NCBI GenBank assembly: GCA_003661965.1
Contig: QMXD01000003.1
Coordinates: 1 to 40,946 of the forward strand
Origin: Candidatus Hecatellales archaeon
GTDB lineage: Archaea > Thermoproteota > Bathyarchaeia > Hecatellales > Hecatellaceae
Length of the DNA stretch: 40,946 nt
Direction of reading: 5' to 3'
In this document: positions 8,546-14,560 of the stretch, piece by piece
Layout: every line of letters starts with the position of its first letter
How positions within the stretch are numbered: position 1 is the stretch's first letter
Notes under the pieces: model-generated
The model's input: the letters and a program-made list of their open reading frames with translations, nothing else
The model's database searches: none
Told to the model about the DNA's origin: nothing
Translations under genes and position numbers: made by a program

Positions 8546-9418
8546 ATGAATCTTCTAGAGGTTGTTTGCAGTAGACCTGTTGTTGGCTTGAATGATAAGC
8601 TTCTTTCAGTCTTAAATATTCTGGGTAGGAAGGGGACACCGTATAGGGTTGTTGTTCTTGGTGAAGATTTTAGGGTTAAGGGTGTTATTAGTGGACGTAG
8701 GATACTTGAGGTTTTGCTTGGTAGACGTGGTGAAGCATTAAAAACAAGGAAGGGTTTAAGGGGTGTTTTAGAGGAGCCTATAAGCCTATTTTTAGATGAG
8801 GCTAGAAACGTTTTCCCTGAAAACGTTACACTTCAAACGGTTTTACAGTATATGGCTGAGAATAGTCTTGGTTATATTATCGTGGTTAATGAGAATCATG
8901 TTTTTAAGGGTGTTGTTGATGAGGCTGCAATTTTAGGTAAACTTTTAAACAAAACTTTTGGTATTAAGGTTAAAGATGTTATGAGTTATCCTGCACTTAC
9001 AATTAATCCTGAAGCAAGCCTACTTGAAGCCTCAAACCTTATGGTTGATTCTAGGGTTAGAAGATTGCTTGTTACAAGGGATGATGTTTTAGTCGGTATT
9101 TTGACTATCACGGATGTTTTACACCATGTTTTGGTGAGAGAGAGGGAAATGGAGTCTGAGCTTTACGATGTTGAAACAATTTTTAAGGCTAAGGTTGATG
9201 AGGTTATGAATACAAACATAATTTCTATCTATCTTGAGAAGGATGTTGGTGAGGCTATAGACAAAATTATTGGAAACGATATAAGCTGTTTACCGGTTTC
9301 CGTTGAAGGTAAGCTTTCAGGTGTGGTTTGTAGGATAGACTTGGTTTCTGGAATTGTCAAAATTAAGGGTGTTCCGGAAGTAGTTAGGATGATGGGGTTA
9401 GAAGCCAAAAATGAGTAG
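8546..9418 (+). CDS. Stand-alone CBS-domain protein (about four CBS repeats)
   Basis: VKDVMSYPALTINPEASLLEA...RVRRLLV...LVGILTITDV and a second ISCLPV...LSGVVCRIDL repeat; overlaps treT by 8 nt. Confidence 0.85.
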   Translation: MNLLEVVCSRPVVGLNDKLLSVLNILGRKGTPYRVVVLGEDFRVKGVISGRRILEVLLGRRGEALKTRKGLRGVLEEPISLFLDEARNVFPENVTLQTVLQYMAENSLGYIIVVNENHVFKGVVDEAAILGKLLNKTFGIKVKDVMSYPALTINPEASLLEASNLMVDSRVRRLLVTRDDVLVGILTITDVLHHVLVREREMESELYDVETIFKAKVDEVMNTNIISIYLEKDVGEAIDKIIGNDISCLPVSVEGKLSGVVCRIDLVSGIVKIKGVPEVVRMMGLEAKNE

Positions 9419-10637
9419 TGTGTGTGTTCGAAAAATTAGTGATTATGAGCCTATAGTTGGCAGGGATGAGATTAAAACCATAGTTAGTTTAGCTGAGAGG
9501 GTTAAAGGTGCAAAAATAATTCATGTAAATTCTACAGCTTATGGTGGTGGTGTTGCAGAAATTCTTAAAAGTCTTATTCCTTTAGCCCGCTCGGTTGGTT
9601 TGGATGCAAGATGGCAGGTTTTACAGGGAAGCAAAGAATTCTTTTTTACAACAAAATCTATCCATAACGCTTTACAGGGAGACAACTCTATCGAGTTAAC
9701 AAGCGAGATGAGGGATGTTTACCTTAAAGTAAACGAGTTAAACGCTAAAACCTTAGACCTTGATGGGGATGTTGTTATGATTCATGACCCTCAACCTTTA
9801 CCACTCATAGACTATAGGAGGGATGGTAAATGGGTTTGGAGATGCCATATTGACACATCCCAGCCTAACAAACATGTTTGGGGTTTTATAAAACCTTTTG
9901 TTGAAAAATATGATGCTCTTGTTTTTTCACGTGAAGCCTACATTCCAAACGATATAAGAGGAATTAAGGTTTTTGTCAGATTTCCATCCATAGACCCTCT
10001 ATCAGATAAAAATAAGCCTCTCCACCAAACAGAAATCCTAAAAATTCTTGAAAGGTTTGATGTTAACCCTGATAAACCAATCATAGGTCAGGTTGCACGT
10101 TTTGACCCATGGAAAAATCCTTTAGGTGTTATAGACACCTATAGGAAGGTTAAAGAAAAAATATCTGAGGTTCAGCTTGTTCTTATAGGTTCTTTTGCCC
10201 ACGACGACCCTGAAGGCTTAGAATGGTATAAAAAAACTGTTAGGTATGCTGAAAACCTTAAGGATGTCTATATACTTACAAACATGGATGGTGTTTGTGA
10301 TGTTGAGGTTAACGGTTTTCAAAGAGCTTTCACTGTTGCTCTTCAACTTTCAATTAGGGAGGGTTTTGGTTTAACTGTTTCTGAGGCTTTATGGAAAGGT
10401 GTTCCTGTTGTTGCAACAAGGGTTGGAGGGATTCCTTTACAGGTTATTGATGGGGTTACAGGTTTTCTTATAAACACTGTTGAGGAGGCTGCTGAAAAAG
10501 TTGTTCTCCTAGTTAAAAGGGGATGGTTGGCTAGAGAGCTTGGAAGAAACGGTGTTGAACATGTTAAAAGAAACTTTTTGGTTACAAAAGACCTAAAAGA
10601 CTATCTTAGGCTACATATAGAGCTTGTTGGTAAATAG
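9411..10637 (+). CDS. treT: Trehalose glycosyltransferring synthase TreT-like (GT4)
   Basis: HVNSTAYGGGVAEIL, IHDPQP, WRCHIDTS, QVARFDPWKNP, EGFGLTVSEALWKG. Confidence 0.85.
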   Translation: MSSVCVRKISDYEPIVGRDEIKTIVSLAERVKGAKIIHVNSTAYGGGVAEILKSLIPLARSVGLDARWQVLQGSKEFFFTTKSIHNALQGDNSIELTSEMRDVYLKVNELNAKTLDLDGDVVMIHDPQPLPLIDYRRDGKWVWRCHIDTSQPNKHVWGFIKPFVEKYDALVFSREAYIPNDIRGIKVFVRFPSIDPLSDKNKPLHQTEILKILERFDVNPDKPIIGQVARFDPWKNPLGVIDTYRKVKEKISEVQLVLIGSFAHDDPEGLEWYKKTVRYAENLKDVYILTNMDGVCDVEVNGFQRAFTVALQLSIREGFGLTVSEALWKGVPVVATRVGGIPLQVIDGVTGFLINTVEEAAEKVVLLVKRGWLARELGRNGVEHVKRNFLVTKDLKDYLRLHIELVGK

Positions 10638-11993
10638 CTAATAGCTTTTAATAACAGACTCAAAAACGGTTTTTAAACGTTCAACAGCCACAGATATACT
10701 ACACTGTTTAGATGTTTCATATCCAACCTCACCCATCCTTAAAGCATCCTCCTCATTCCCTAAAAGATAACTTATTTTTCCTGCAAGCTCCCTATAGTCT
10801 TGGGGGTTATGGGTTAAACCGTTAACGTTTTCAATTATAAGCTCAGAAGAACCTGCACCCCTACTTACAACCACAGGTTTTCTGTAGTTCCATGCTTCAA
10901 CAACAGTTAAACCAAAACCTTCCATAAGTGAGGGAAGTAAAACCACGTCAGCCCTCATATACAAACATTTAAGCTCCTCCTCATCAACATAACCTAAAAA
11001 CTTTACAGAGTCTTCCACTTTAAGCTCCTCAGCAAGCTTTTTTAGTTCCCTTCTCCAGTTTTCACCTTTACTATGTCCAAGACTTGTGCTTGTAAAACTT
11101 CCATCCCCAACAAGCAAAAGTTTTGTGTTTGGGTTTTCTTTTTTAACTATGGGTAAAGCTTTTATTGCTGTATCCTGACCCTTAACCCTATCCATCCTTG
11201 CAACAACAAGAATAACCTTTTCATCTTCCATGATACCATACTTTGACAGGGTTTCATCAAGCTTTTTACCGTTCACCTTACCCCATTTTTCAGGGTCCAC
11301 ATAGGGATATATCTGGTAGGCTTTCCCATGGTAACCAGCACGAATTAAACCTTCAAGGTCTCTTTTTGTGCTTACAATCACAGCATCATAGCTTTCCATG
11401 TTTTTCATGATAAAGTTTCTTAGTCTTGGTGAAACATGCTCCAGCTTAAACGGTATATGCCAACGGAAGATTGTTGGGGCTGAGGGTCCTATCATACTTC
11501 CAACCTGAAGCTGTTGAAAATCATGAATCCAAAAAATGTCTATGTCTGGTAGAAACTTTAACATTGTTTGGGTGCAAAGCCAGTTATAGTAGGCGTATGC
11601 CTCATATTCCTCTTTCCTTATCTCCATTTTTCCAAGCCCATGAATTTCCCTCCAAATTCCCTCTTTAAAGCCTGTGTAACGTGGGACATAGAAGCTTGGT
11701 AGTTGAACGTTGTAGATATGAACCCCTTCGTGAAAAACTTCTAAGGGTGCGTTTGGGTTTAGGGAAACCCATTTTGGTGAGGAAACTAACCCTCTAACCA
11801 TAAACCTTTTTAGTATGGCATAGGTCATTTCAGCCACTCCGCCTGGTGTAAACTGGTAGTCTTCGTTTTCAACTAGGTCTTTTAGGTTTATGGGTTCGTA
11901 TAGGTAACCGTATTTTTCAAGAATCTCCTCATAGTTTAGTTTAAACCTGACTAGGGGTGTTTGGGTGTTTACACATAGCTTAATCTGATTCAT
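10638..11993 (-). CDS. GT4 glycosyltransferase, candidate non-OtsA trehalose-6-phosphate synthase
   Basis: NTQTPLVRF N-terminus, PGGVAEM, WIHDFQQL, FRWHIP, VARMDRVKGQD, EGFGLTVVEAW; divergent from T6P phosphatase gene. Confidence 0.75.
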   Translation of the reverse strand: MNQIKLCVNTQTPLVRFKLNYEEILEKYGYLYEPINLKDLVENEDYQFTPGGVAEMTYAILKRFMVRGLVSSPKWVSLNPNAPLEVFHEGVHIYNVQLPSFYVPRYTGFKEGIWREIHGLGKMEIRKEEYEAYAYYNWLCTQTMLKFLPDIDIFWIHDFQQLQVGSMIGPSAPTIFRWHIPFKLEHVSPRLRNFIMKNMESYDAVIVSTKRDLEGLIRAGYHGKAYQIYPYVDPEKWGKVNGKKLDETLSKYGIMEDEKVILVVARMDRVKGQDTAIKALPIVKKENPNTKLLLVGDGSFTSTSLGHSKGENWRRELKKLAEELKVEDSVKFLGYVDEEELKCLYMRADVVLLPSLMEGFGLTVVEAWNYRKPVVVSRGAGSSELIIENVNGLTHNPQDYRELAGKISYLLGNEEDALRMGEVGYETSKQCSISVAVERLKTVFESVIKSY

Positions 11994-12072
11994 TGTTACA
12001 TAGGTAAACTTGTTTTCGTGGGAAAAATGTCTTTCTAAAATTTTTGATGGTTAACCTAAACCGATATTTAGT

Positions 12073-12876
12073 ATGTTTAACATAAAAATATGGTTACAGA
12101 TGTCTCCAAAACACTTATACAGATTTTGGTTTGAGGTTGAGGGTAGGCTTAAAAAAGAGTCAAAAATATTTTTGATGTTGGATTATGATGGGACGATTGT
12201 TCCGATAGCAGAAAAACCTGAGCTAGCAATTTTAAACCCTAAGGTTAGGCTTCTACTCAAAAACATTGTTTTAAGAAGTGGAAAGTTTAAGGTTGCTATT
12301 GTTAGTGGAAGAAGCATTAAAGACCTTAAAAGCCTCCTCAGATTAAAAGACATATACTATGTTGGTGTTCATGGTTTAACGGTGGAAGGTCCAAACCTAA
12401 AGTTTACCCATAGGGAGGCTGTTAGGGTTAAACCTTTTATCGTTAAAGCCTATAGGGATTTGGCTGAAAGTCTTAAGGGTGTTAGTGGTGTTTTTGTTGA
12501 GGATAAGGGTTTTACTGTTGCTGTCCACTACCGTTTAGCAAAGGAAAACAGAAGAATTATAAGGGAAAGGGTTTTGTCGGTTAAAGCTAAATATGGTTGT
12601 TTTAGACTTTTGGAGGGGAAAAAGGTTTTTGAGCTTACGCCAAACATAGATTGGGGGAAGGGTGATGCAAGCCTTCTTCTGCTTAAAAGGTTTAGGTTTA
12701 AACATTTCCCTATCTATGTTGGGGACGATAAAACTGATGAGGATGCGTTTAAAAAGCTTAAAGATAAAGGTTTAACTGTTGTTGTGGGGAGGAAAAGGTT
12801 TTCCGAAGCCAAATACTACGTGAAAAACGTTAGGGAAGTTTGGTTTCTCCTCCAAAAACTTCTTTCCCTACCTTAG
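12073..12876 (+). CDS. otsB: Trehalose-6-phosphate phosphatase (HAD IIB); alternative start ATG 12100
   Basis: LMLDYDGT, VSGRS, VEDKGFTVAVHYR, GKKVFELTP...WGKG, YVGDDKTDEDAF. Confidence 0.9.
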   Translation: MFNIKIWLQMSPKHLYRFWFEVEGRLKKESKIFLMLDYDGTIVPIAEKPELAILNPKVRLLLKNIVLRSGKFKVAIVSGRSIKDLKSLLRLKDIYYVGVHGLTVEGPNLKFTHREAVRVKPFIVKAYRDLAESLKGVSGVFVEDKGFTVAVHYRLAKENRRIIRERVLSVKAKYGCFRLLEGKKVFELTPNIDWGKGDASLLLLKRFRFKHFPIYVGDDKTDEDAFKKLKDKGLTVVVGRKRFSEAKYYVKNVREVWFLLQKLLSLP

Positions 12877-12877
12877 C

Positions 12878-13951
12878 TTAGGGGGAAGCCAAAAAACCTT
12901 TAATCCTTTCAGCTATGTTGAATGGGTTTGAGGCTATTATGCTTGAAGCATAAAGCTCCATAGCACCAATATCCGACACGTTTTGGTTTAACAAGCCCCT
13001 ATCAACAATTCTTACTATGTATGGGAAATCATCCCATCCATTAACTTTTTTAGCTGGCGGGAAAACCATAGAAAGGTTAAAAGAGTATACGTTTAGGCTT
13101 TTGTAGGCTTCCAAAACCTTATGGATGACTTTAGGAAGATTCCTGTTCCAGTTGTGGGTAAACATAAAAACCTCTTTTTCCTTTATTGGTGTAAGATAAA
13201 CAAAAACCTTAACCCCACCATAGGTTAAACCTAAACCAAGAACCCTATGTATATGGTAAAGGTCTTGAAGATAGTTTGAACCGTAGGTTTCCCTATACCT
13301 TTCCATGCATAAACGTAAATATTCAGGTTTAGGGTAAGGCTTCCTACTCATCATCACCTGAAAATGGCTGTGGTTTTGGCTTGCTCCAGCCCTCCAAAGA
13401 CAATTCCATATCAAATATGGGAAAACAGCCCTAGAATCCTCCCTATTCACCCTTTTAAACCATTGGACGGCTGTTTTAAACCCGTCTAAAAGCTCTTTAA
13501 GGCTTAGCTTTAAAGGGTTATGTTTTCTGGGGATAATTAGACTATGCCAACCATCATATTTAGCAATGTTTGCTGCTGTGGTTGTGTAGGCTGACTCAAT
13601 TCTTCCAAAAACATCTTCAGCTGTCTGGTTTTTGGGGTTACATAGCATACATTTTTCCTCGGTAAACGTTGGAGGCTGGGTTTCCTGTTTTTTAGCGGTT
13701 CTTAGGGCTCTAAGCTGGTTGTAGAAGGCTCCCTCAAAGGTAACCTTGTTTACAACCTTAACTATTGTTTGTTTTTTAACAGCTTTTAAGCTTCCAAACC
13801 TCTCTTTAGCAAAACTTTTTAAGGTTGGGGGAATTTTAAGTCTTCCAACAACAACCTCAACCTCAAAAATTCTATGAAAAATTTTTTTATCTTTTTTTGG
13901 AAGCTTTTTTACAAGTTTAGGTAGCATAACCATATCCATGTTTAGCTTCAA
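12878..13951 (-). CDS. GalT-like (HIT superfamily) sugar-1-phosphate nucleotidyltransferase / NDP-sugar phosphorylase
   Basis: CMLC Zn site, HSLIIPRKH, NCLWRAGASQNHSHFQ with the HxHxQ catalytic signature. Confidence 0.72.
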   Translation of the reverse strand: MKLNMDMVMLPKLVKKLPKKDKKIFHRIFEVEVVVGRLKIPPTLKSFAKERFGSLKAVKKQTIVKVVNKVTFEGAFYNQLRALRTAKKQETQPPTFTEEKCMLCNPKNQTAEDVFGRIESAYTTTAANIAKYDGWHSLIIPRKHNPLKLSLKELLDGFKTAVQWFKRVNREDSRAVFPYLIWNCLWRAGASQNHSHFQVMMSRKPYPKPEYLRLCMERYRETYGSNYLQDLYHIHRVLGLGLTYGGVKVFVYLTPIKEKEVFMFTHNWNRNLPKVIHKVLEAYKSLNVYSFNLSMVFPPAKKVNGWDDFPYIVRIVDRGLLNQNVSDIGAMELYASSIIASNPFNIAERIKGFLASP

Positions 13952-14053
13952 CCTTTGATAGTTTCTTTCTCCCCAAAATATAAAAGACTAAAATTTTTTT
14001 GTCTATGGTTTCCATAAAAATTTTAGGTGAAGTTTTCTTTTGGTGGTGGGGGA

Positions 14054-14560
14054 ATGTCTGAAAAAATAAGTAAAATTCTTTTCCCTAGACTTGTTGTGCT
14101 TATAACCACGTGTGGTATGGATGGAAAAGCTAACGTTTCAACCTTCTCCTTTATAATGCCAATAAGCTTCCAACCAAAATATGTTGCTTTTGCTGTTGTT
14201 CCAACAAGATACACGTTTAAAAACCTTAAAGAGGTTCCTGAGTTTGTTATAAACATACCAAACGAAAAAATGCTTAAAGAAGTATGGGTTTGTGGAACAA
14301 GGTCTGGTAGAGACACAGACAAGTTTAAGCTGGCAGAACTTAAAACAGAGGCTAGTGTTAAGGTTAAACCTCTAAGAATAGAAAAATGCCCCATCCAGCT
14401 AGAATGTAAGGTTGAGTTTATGAGGGAGTTTGGAGACCACTATCTGATTGTTGGAAAGGTTTTGGAGGAGCATGTTAAAGAAAAAGAGTTTAAACCTATC
14501 CTACACTATTCTGGTAACGAGTTTTATGTTGTTGGAGAAAAGGTAAGCTATGGTGGATAA
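14054..14560 (+). CDS. Flavin reductase-like FMN-binding split-barrel protein
   Basis: ISFQPKYVAFAV, EFVINIP, CGTRSGRDTDKF, CPIQLECKV, GDHYLIVG; ATG 14054 after GGTGG preferred over GTG 14027. Confidence 0.85.
   Translation: MSEKISKILFPRLVVLITTCGMDGKANVSTFSFIMPISFQPKYVAFAVVPTRYTFKNLKEVPEFVINIPNEKMLKEVWVCGTRSGRDTDKFKLAELKTEASVKVKPLRIEKCPIQLECKVEFMREFGDHYLIVGKVLEEHVKEKEFKPILHYSGNEFYVVGEKVSYGG

Follow-up and report, generated by a model that had tools for sequence, protein, structure and literature searches.

Two predicted trehalose modules and a probable bystander gene at one locus of a Candidatus Hecatellales archaeon

Introduction

Positions 8546-13951 of contig QMXD01000003.1 from Candidatus Hecatellales archaeon (GenBank assembly GCA_003661965.1) hold five closely packed genes, and the question they raise is whether this archaeon carries one self-contained trehalose pathway at a single locus. 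The whole stretch analysed (positions 1 to 40,946, 40,946 nucleotides; hereafter the window) has a GC content of approximately 38%, and the trehalose region is bordered by genes for A-type ATPase and GatE. The five genes encode a CBS-domain protein, TreT, a GT4-family glycosyltransferase, a trehalose-6-phosphate phosphatase (TPP) and a HIT-like protein with the fold of GalT. An initial annotation had joined all five in one route that operates without the canonical trehalose-6-phosphate synthase (TPS) OtsA. With good confidence, the locus is described here instead as two conserved trehalose modules, a GT4-type TPS with its TPP and a CBS-TreT pair, plus one probable bystander. This reading is carried by the orthology of the GT4 protein to a proven TPS, by the co-conservation of four of the genes in other genomes, and by the rarity of the fifth beside them. 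The core of the locus is of an already published kind.

Gene order of the locus

The features of the locus were as follows.

8546-9418, + strand: CBS protein, 290 aa (PF00571); its last 8 nt lie within the beginning of the TreT gene
9411-10637, + strand: TreT, 408 aa (PF21269 and a match to characterised TreT)
10638-11993, - strand: GT4-type TPS by orthology to Saci_1249, 451 aa (PF00534)
11994-12072: divergent intergenic region between the GT4-type TPS and TPP genes, 79 nt, AT-rich, with TATA-like runs TTTCTAAAATTTTTGA
12073-12876, + strand: stand-alone TPP (OtsB, HAD-IIB), 267 aa (PF02358, TIGR00685)
12878-13951, - strand: HIT/GalT-like protein, 357 aa (fold and motif NHSHFQ)

The last open reading frame (ORF) is given in databases as 353 aa, with its start at 13939. 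All five ORFs were recovered as the initial annotation had placed them, with almost no spacers (-8, 0, 79 and 1 nt in order). Its family calls were confirmed by Pfam and NCBIfam for the CBS protein, TreT, GT4 and TPP; the GalT-like call was borne out by fold and motif, and not by a family match. The single operon that it implied was not found. Reading along the window, the strands run + + - + -, and as they alternate, the five genes form four transcription units. Co-transcription is possible for the CBS-TreT pair only. The TreT and GT4 genes are convergent (0 nt between stop codons), GT4 and TPP are divergent, and TPP and the HIT-like gene are convergent (1 nt between stops). The 79-nt region is presumed, from its position and composition, to be a shared GT4-TPS/TPP promoter. 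When the three promoter regions were read for a common motif, AT-rich TATA-like runs were found and nothing more.

A GT4-type synthase in place of OtsA

The source assembly comprised 1.30 Mb in 154 contigs and was 90% complete. A six-frame search of this genome with the GT20 model PF00982 gave nothing above the cut-off, in agreement with the absence of a canonical OtsA proposed earlier. The best sub-threshold match was the window's own GT4 protein (21.6 bits versus a cut-off of 32.5), which also showed weak N-terminal similarity to GT20 in a protein scan (36 bits).

A proven synthase exists within GT4. Saci_1249 of Sulfolobus acidocaldarius forms trehalose 6-phosphate (T6P) from UDP- or ADP-glucose and glucose 6-phosphate (G6P), has no TreT activity, and, when four further sugar phosphates were tried in place of G6P, used none of them (PMC7688234). 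An S. acidocaldarius triple mutant (treY treT tps) made no trehalose and did not grow under salt stress (PMC7688234). The Saci_1249 query used here consisted of residues 19-443 as printed in a supplementary figure of that paper, and its text contains machine-reading errors. BLASTP aligned it with the window GT4 over almost the full length (41% identity, E 1e-86). In the reverse search, the best match of Saci_1249 in the window's genome was the same GT4 protein, at 259 bits versus 52 for the next. A profile built from the window's GT4 family (A1) was also run on 301 genomes drawn evenly from the same phylum (G numbers). In G102 (one contig, 2,225,959 bp) it found a single locus, 91% identical to the machine-read Saci_1249. 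Residues E358 and E366 were invariant in the family.

A tree was made from 56 members of the GT4-TPS family, nine TreT and two other GT4s (a rapid search, in which the outgroup branches were long). The 56 formed one group (SH-aLRT 88) separate from the nine TreT, and the Sulfolobaceae clade with Saci_1249 was nested in the same sub-clade as the window clade (support 92). By sequence, the window GT4 is an orthologue of the GT4-type TPS Saci_1249. The orthology, together with the repeated linkage to canonical TPP described below, upholds the earlier suggestion that this GT4 is the T6P synthase; such a function for GT4 is already described, having been published in 2020 (PMC7688234).

It could be argued that the GT4 protein is no stand-alone TPS, and that it makes another phosphorylated glycoside (of the sucrose-6-phosphate or glucosyl-glycerate type) for the HAD phosphatase or activates another enzyme. 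GT4 is functionally very diverse, a cyanobacterial sucrose-phosphate synthase (6kih) outranked TreT as the best sequence match among solved structures, and in Thermoproteus tenax the GT4 protein TTX_1305 activates the fused TPS-TPP enzyme, TPSP (PMC3634074). Set against this are the reciprocal best match to a biochemically and genetically proven, G6P-using TPS, and an adjacent phosphatase that passes the T6P-phosphatase equivalog model and gave no match to sucrose-6-phosphate phosphatase. The genome also has no GT20 TPSP to activate. Membership of the T. tenax activator in the window's GT4 family was rejected, since the activator (387 aa) is PimA-like and the TPSP-bearing family f21 (taken as Thermoproteaceae) gave no A1 match. 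We consider a function other than T6P synthesis very unlikely.

The distribution of the two synthase types agrees with the GT4 protein being the TPS. True GT20 was found in 22 of the 301 genomes, in three families, always as fused TPSP with an open frame of approximately 600-860 aa. GT4-TPS was found in 28 genomes, and none of these carried GT20. An in-frame stop had been flagged ('1 TGA') in GT4-TPS genes of three genomes of one genus and was rejected, since one of the three, when aligned by tblastn, had no stop within the gene. Possible pseudogenes were seen among other trehalose genes: a TreT with an in-frame TAG at G163:C1:1671480-1671794 (family f27, taken as Sulfolobaceae) and a TPSP interrupted in frame by TAA and TAG at G195:C17:3138-5246 (family f21).

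The GT4-type TPS family has been described as mainly found in Sulfolobales (PMC7688234). A scan of species-representative genomes for relatives of the window GT4 found 245; the nearest public relatives of the source assembly are Bathyarchaeia genome bins. The best 80 were kept as a set of loci (L numbers), and came from Bathyarchaeia, Nitrososphaerota, Methanomethylicia, Hadarchaeota, ANME-2 (anaerobic methanotrophic archaea), Thermoplasmata, Marsarchaeota and Hodarchaeaceae. This far wider distribution is new. One locus, L027 (NZCD01000010.1), is labelled Parcubacteria group bacterium; its GT4-TPS gene adjoins TPP and groups with Thaumarchaeota in the tree. The presence of this gene on a contig binned to the candidate phyla radiation reflects either mis-binning or inter-domain transfer.

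Linkage to a canonical phosphatase

The window phosphatase matched PF02358 at 129.5 bits (cut-off 27) and TIGR00685 at 134.4 bits (cut-off 68), and its translation contains HAD motifs I and IV (LDYDGT and GDDKTDE). By these matches it is a canonical OtsB-type TPP. The predicted two-step chemistry is that of Escherichia coli OtsA/OtsB, and the phosphatase is homologous (PF02358, TIGR00685); the synthase belongs to GT4 and not to GT20, with the weak N-terminal similarity noted above remaining. The closest published system is that of S. acidocaldarius (Saci_1249 and Saci_0016; PMC7688234), where a GT4 synthase likewise replaces GT20 OtsA and TreT is also present. There the TPS and TPP genes are unlinked, whereas in the window they stand head to head; and the S. 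acidocaldarius phosphatase is a non-canonical, broad-range HAD protein in an organism with no canonical TPP homologue, whereas that of the window is of the OtsB type.

Linkage in the 80 GT4-TPS loci was scored by tblastn with the five window proteins. TreT adjoined GT4-TPS in 41 loci (within approximately 1.2 kb) and canonical TPP in 15 (within approximately 2.8 kb). The CBS protein was near GT4-TPS in five loci, and the HIT-like protein in one (L004). The arrangement of GT4-TPS and TPP varied: they were divergent in the window, L004 and L005, convergent in L006, L017 and L019, and part of a collinear TreT-TPP-GT4 series in the Nitrososphaeria loci L011-L014. TPP linkage spanned Bathyarchaeia, Nitrososphaerota, Hadarchaeota and Hodarchaeaceae. 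Linkage in such varied orders and in several phyla argues for function and not for shared ancestry. L005 and L006 also combine the CBS, TreT, GT4 and TPP genes; their genomic surroundings are different, and the HIT-like gene is absent. As a conserved unit, the proposed five-gene cluster is thus upheld by this synteny survey for four genes and not for the fifth. The pairing of GT4-TPS with canonical TPP is new.

Fourteen stand-alone TPP genes were found in the 301 genomes, none of them with GT20; three adjoined GT4-TPS. A canonical TPP gene standing alone was present in seven genomes of family f18, genus g37 (G008, G016, G048, G064, G104, G236 and G284), together with the CBS-TreT pair in G016, G048, G064 and G104. 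Neither true GT20 nor GT4-TPS at E <= 1e-60 was found in these seven genomes.

Some related loci contain MscS-type channel genes. In L006:8959-12809 (Bathyarchaeia, CAZNLG010000008.1), MscS, CBS, TreT and TPP follow one another on one strand, convergent with GT4-TPS, and this MscS-headed operon recalls the msc-gt-tpsp operon of T. tenax. In L030:8469-12888 (Hadesarchaea, JAPDJH010000012.1), MscS lies between GT4-TPS and TreT, beside a canonical TPP and with no CBS or OrfY gene; similar GT4-TPS/TreT spacing was seen in L018, L021 and L064. The window cluster has no channel gene, in contrast to the T. tenax operon, L006 and L030. An MscS gene is present in the window's genome on another short contig (G000:C121:851-1654), and is 68% identical to the MscS gene of the L006 operon. 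The T. tenax cluster (PMC3634074) resembles the window in joining a T6P route to a GT4 protein in an archaeon. It differs in that its synthase is a fused GT20 TPS-TPP with the PimA-like GT4 as activator, whereas in the window there is no GT20, the GT4 protein belongs to another family and would itself be the synthase, and TPP is a separate gene.

L054:6394-13310 (ANME-2c, RXIK01000115.1) contains a collinear GT4-TPS-DUF5752(OrfY)-TreT operon and, divergent from it, a gene of GH65 phosphorylase type and another GT4 gene. The L054 core recurred in approximately 25 further loci of Methanosarcinales/ANME-2. A study from 2026 of disaccharides in consortia that oxidise alkanes recognised OtsA solely by PF00982 and did not treat the GT4-TPS family; a count of this kind would miss GT4-TPS.

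TreT and its four-CBS partner

TreT was identified by PF21269 (196 bits) and by matches to characterised TreT from Pyrococcus horikoshii (2x6q; 476 bits, residues 6-401) and Thermoproteus uzoniensis (6zj4; 400 bits). It scored 524 bits against the NCBIfam equivalog NF041139, below the 775 cut-off; as this model is named for Thermococcales, the score does not exclude TreT function. The family match and the full-length match to characterised TreT sustain the earlier view of TreT as a second trehalose route.

The CBS protein contains four CBS repeats, forming two Bateman modules. AlphaFold2 modelled it as a disc of four CBS repeats (pLDDT 90.7). Foldseek matched the model to MJ1225 (3kh5, template modelling (TM) score 0.83/0.87), to AMP-bound SSO3205 (3ddj) and to AMPK gamma, and TM scores to 3kh5 and 3lfz were 0.83-0.88. 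Two of the four repeats carry an S/T-x-x-D motif, and orthologues share both. Motif-level hints of nucleotide binding are TITD and CRID, and R172, R173, R263 and D265 are invariant. From these features we infer that the protein binds a nucleotide, most likely an adenylate.

Orthologues were defined in the 301 genomes by a cut-off of E <= 1e-48, which retained 17 genomes including the window's own. In 16 of the 17 the gene was the one directly upstream of TreT, on the same strand, and in the remaining genome, G172, the pair was split between contigs. The CBS-TreT genomes include family f18, which has no GT4-TPS. Eleven regions were inspected, and CBS-TreT spacing ranged from -8 to +5 nt. The flanking genes were unrelated from one region to another (arginyl-tRNA synthetase, aldehyde ferredoxin oxidoreductase, GH57, histidine kinase, Na+/H+ exchanger). 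MJ1225, SSO3205 and AMPK gamma share the four-CBS disc (TM up to 0.88) and are not linked to TreT, whereas what marks out the window's CBS group is its constant place upstream of that gene. The gate of the whole cluster by an adenylate-sensing CBS protein, as first proposed, is therefore retained in part: the AMPK-gamma/MJ1225-type fold agrees with it, and the protein is tied to TreT alone, even in genomes without GT4-TPS.

A different small gene occupies the same position elsewhere. DUF5752 was encoded directly upstream of TreT in 26 of the 41 GT4-linked TreT loci, and the DUF5752 protein matches PDB entry 4CSO, which is OrfY of T. tenax. Among the 56 TreT genomes in the phylum sample, OrfY adjoined TreT in 24 (including G102), the CBS protein in 17, neither in 15 and both in none. 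As in the orfY-treT pair, a small, putatively accessory gene precedes TreT on the same strand; the four-CBS protein is unrelated to DUF5752. The CBS protein would thus be a TreT-specific accessory or regulatory protein and a positional analogue of OrfY. Full-text literature searches found no description of the CBS-TreT pairing, and searches for OrfY-TreT likewise returned nothing relevant. The strict CBS-TreT pairing, exclusive with OrfY, is a new observation. The TreT pathway of T. tenax was reportedly described by Kouril et al. in 2008.

The CBS protein might instead be a general energy-state or ribosome-associated factor, similar to Dri/Sri, that shares the TreT transcript without acting on TreT. 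Ribosome-bound four-CBS proteins (9zng, 9znf and 9e7f) were among the top Foldseek matches (TM 0.69-0.85), and CBS proteins are abundant, with targets that cannot be read from sequence. Against it stand the fixed place directly upstream of TreT while flanking genes vary freely, the lack of any orthologue apart from TreT in the 301 genomes at E <= 1e-48 (with G172 and its separate contigs as the one split case), and the failure of the pairing to co-occur with OrfY, the second accessory gene linked to TreT, in any genome of the sample. We regard this alternative as improbable, and a partner specific to TreT is preferred.

The GalT-fold gene

The HIT-like protein matched no Pfam or NCBIfam family at E <= 0.001, GalT models (GalP_UDP_transf) included; Ap4A_phos_N reached E 0.12 only. 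Its AlphaFold2 model (pLDDT 91.2, pTM 0.91) shows a two-domain HIT fold. The top Foldseek match was Arabidopsis ADP-glucose phosphorylase (2h39/1z84; E 3e-11, TM 0.59/0.67), followed by GalT enzymes and yeast Apa2 (6k5z, 5in3, 1hxp and 4i5v) down to E 1e-6. The motif H-x-H-x-Q (H190, H192, Q194) was invariant in 31 homologues. Like At5g18200 (2h39/1z84) and GalT, the protein thus has the HIT fold of the GalT branch, with two domains, and the nucleotidyl-histidine motif HxHxQ, but differs in its low identity to them (13-17%), in the lack of a Pfam GalT domain match and in an extra N-terminal region. It most likely interconverts a nucleoside diphosphate (NDP)-hexose and a hexose 1-phosphate.

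The family comprises at least 800 clusters at 90% identity, all named 'hypothetical', mostly bacterial and without a Pfam domain. Neighbours were counted in 77 metagenome loci (loci L106-L185). GlgA was found in 11 (directly upstream), PurH in 11, a sucrose-synthase-like GT4 in five, isochorismatase in five, flavin reductase in five, a debranching enzyme in four and GT2 in four. Single loci held GlgA, a glucan phosphorylase with an NTP_transferase, a GT4 or a GT2. GlgA lay immediately upstream of the GalT-fold gene in, for example, L114:4488-5987 and L090:3490-4989, with gaps down to -16 nt, and PurH was likewise upstream in its 11 loci. A GalT-fold family linked to glucan genes is a new observation. 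In the window, a flavin-reductase-domain gene (14027-14560, + strand) is the divergent neighbour of the GalT-fold gene, and a flavin reductase gene was the next one downstream in five of the 77 loci, e.g. L135:1370-1864. A 123-aa ORF at 14023-14394 (- strand) lies wholly antisense to the flavin reductase gene and is probably no gene.

These properties bear on the reading in which the five genes form one self-contained pathway and the GalT-like enzyme supplies or recycles NDP-glucose for TPS and TreT. In one form of it, ADP-glucose and phosphate (Pi) would be interconverted with glucose 1-phosphate and ADP, which with reverse TreT amounts to net trehalose phosphorolysis. The closeness of the fold to ADP-glucose phosphorylase and GalT, the invariant motif and the placement of the family elsewhere beside NDP-glucose-using or glucan enzymes are in its favour, and in the window only 1 nt separates its end from the TPP stop. 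A tblastn search of the window's genome for glycogen and trehalose-degradation genes (GlgA, glucan phosphorylase, GH57, glycogen debranching enzyme and GH65 queries) gave no match, a weak negative because the queries were distant, being taken from other loci. With no glycogen genes detected, the trehalose enzymes would be the obvious local users of NDP-glucose.

Conservation points the other way. Of the 80 GT4-TPS loci only L004 has the HIT-like gene, and it shares the window's gene order from atpB through to a deacetylase gene, with ATPase subunits 91-98% identical. Since this collinearity extends far beyond the cluster, the arrangement is inherited and provides no independent evidence for linkage. 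L005 and L006 hold the other four genes without it, and strong orthologues were found in just three of the 301 genomes. The gene is convergent to TPP and monocistronic, and PurH is as frequent a neighbour of its family as GlgA. The window's genome contains five NTP_transferase-family matches that could make NDP-glucose, so that the HIT-like enzyme is not needed for this supply. A single five-gene pathway is accordingly thought unlikely, and the place given to the GalT-like gene in the route by the initial annotation was not supported. The tie of this gene to trehalose comes from the gene order of one genus-level lineage only; it is probably a neighbour and no conserved member of a trehalose module.

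Proposed model

The reading preferred here, two conserved trehalose modules and a probable bystander, can be set out as follows. In the first module, the GT4-type TPS would take the place of GT20 OtsA and make T6P, with UDP- or ADP-glucose and G6P as its substrates, and the canonical OtsB-type phosphatase encoded head to head with it would release trehalose. The second module would be a translationally coupled CBS-TreT operon, in which TreT is predicted to convert NDP-glucose and glucose to trehalose and NDP, possibly reversibly. The four-CBS protein may act as a regulatory partner specific to TreT, in contact with it, and may bind a nucleotide, for which an adenylate is the likeliest candidate. 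It would take the position held by OrfY/DUF5752 in Thermoproteaceae, Sulfolobaceae and ANME-2. The MscS channels in related clusters make compatible-solute (osmotic or stress) homeostasis a likely role.

Several observations weigh against this model. Identity of 41% with Saci_1249 does not guarantee the same acceptor, and the best solved-structure match of the GT4 C-terminal domain is a sucrose-phosphate synthase. In 37 of the 80 GT4-TPS loci neither TreT nor TPP was nearby, partly because contigs are short, and 13 GT4-TPS genomes in the phylum sample had no TreT at all. The archaeal ribosome-binding factors Dri and Sri are four-CBS proteins of the same fold, so the fold leaves the target of the CBS protein unspecified. 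The five genes also do not share one strand with operon-like spacing, as a single five-gene operon would.

A bolder proposal can be made, to which only a small probability is given. The adenylate-sensing CBS protein would be a dedicated TreT subunit that replaces OrfY and sets the direction or rate of TreT by energy state, and the GalT-fold enzyme of this lineage would be an NDP-glucose phosphorylase. If this were true, reverse TreT and the GalT-fold enzyme would together perform an NDP-catalytic phosphorolysis, from trehalose and Pi to glucose and glucose 1-phosphate. In the opposite direction, the GalT-fold enzyme would supply NDP-glucose without spending nucleoside triphosphate, and the members of its family beside bacterial GlgA would be a GlgC-independent source of ADP-glucose.

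Significance

GT4-TPS is widespread in uncultured archaea, including Bathyarchaeia, relatives of ammonia oxidisers, Hadarchaeota, ANME-2, Thermoplasmata and an Asgard lineage. Its repeated pairing with OtsB-type TPP and with TreT, and its exclusivity with GT20 in the sampled phylum, provide independent genomic support for the TPS function of the family. It follows that surveys based on PF00982 only underestimate T6P synthesis in archaea. The reversibility of TreT is debated, and the CBS-TreT pairing offers a concrete candidate for its regulation. The GalT-fold family found beside glycogen synthases may represent an NDP-glucose enzyme that has so far escaped notice.

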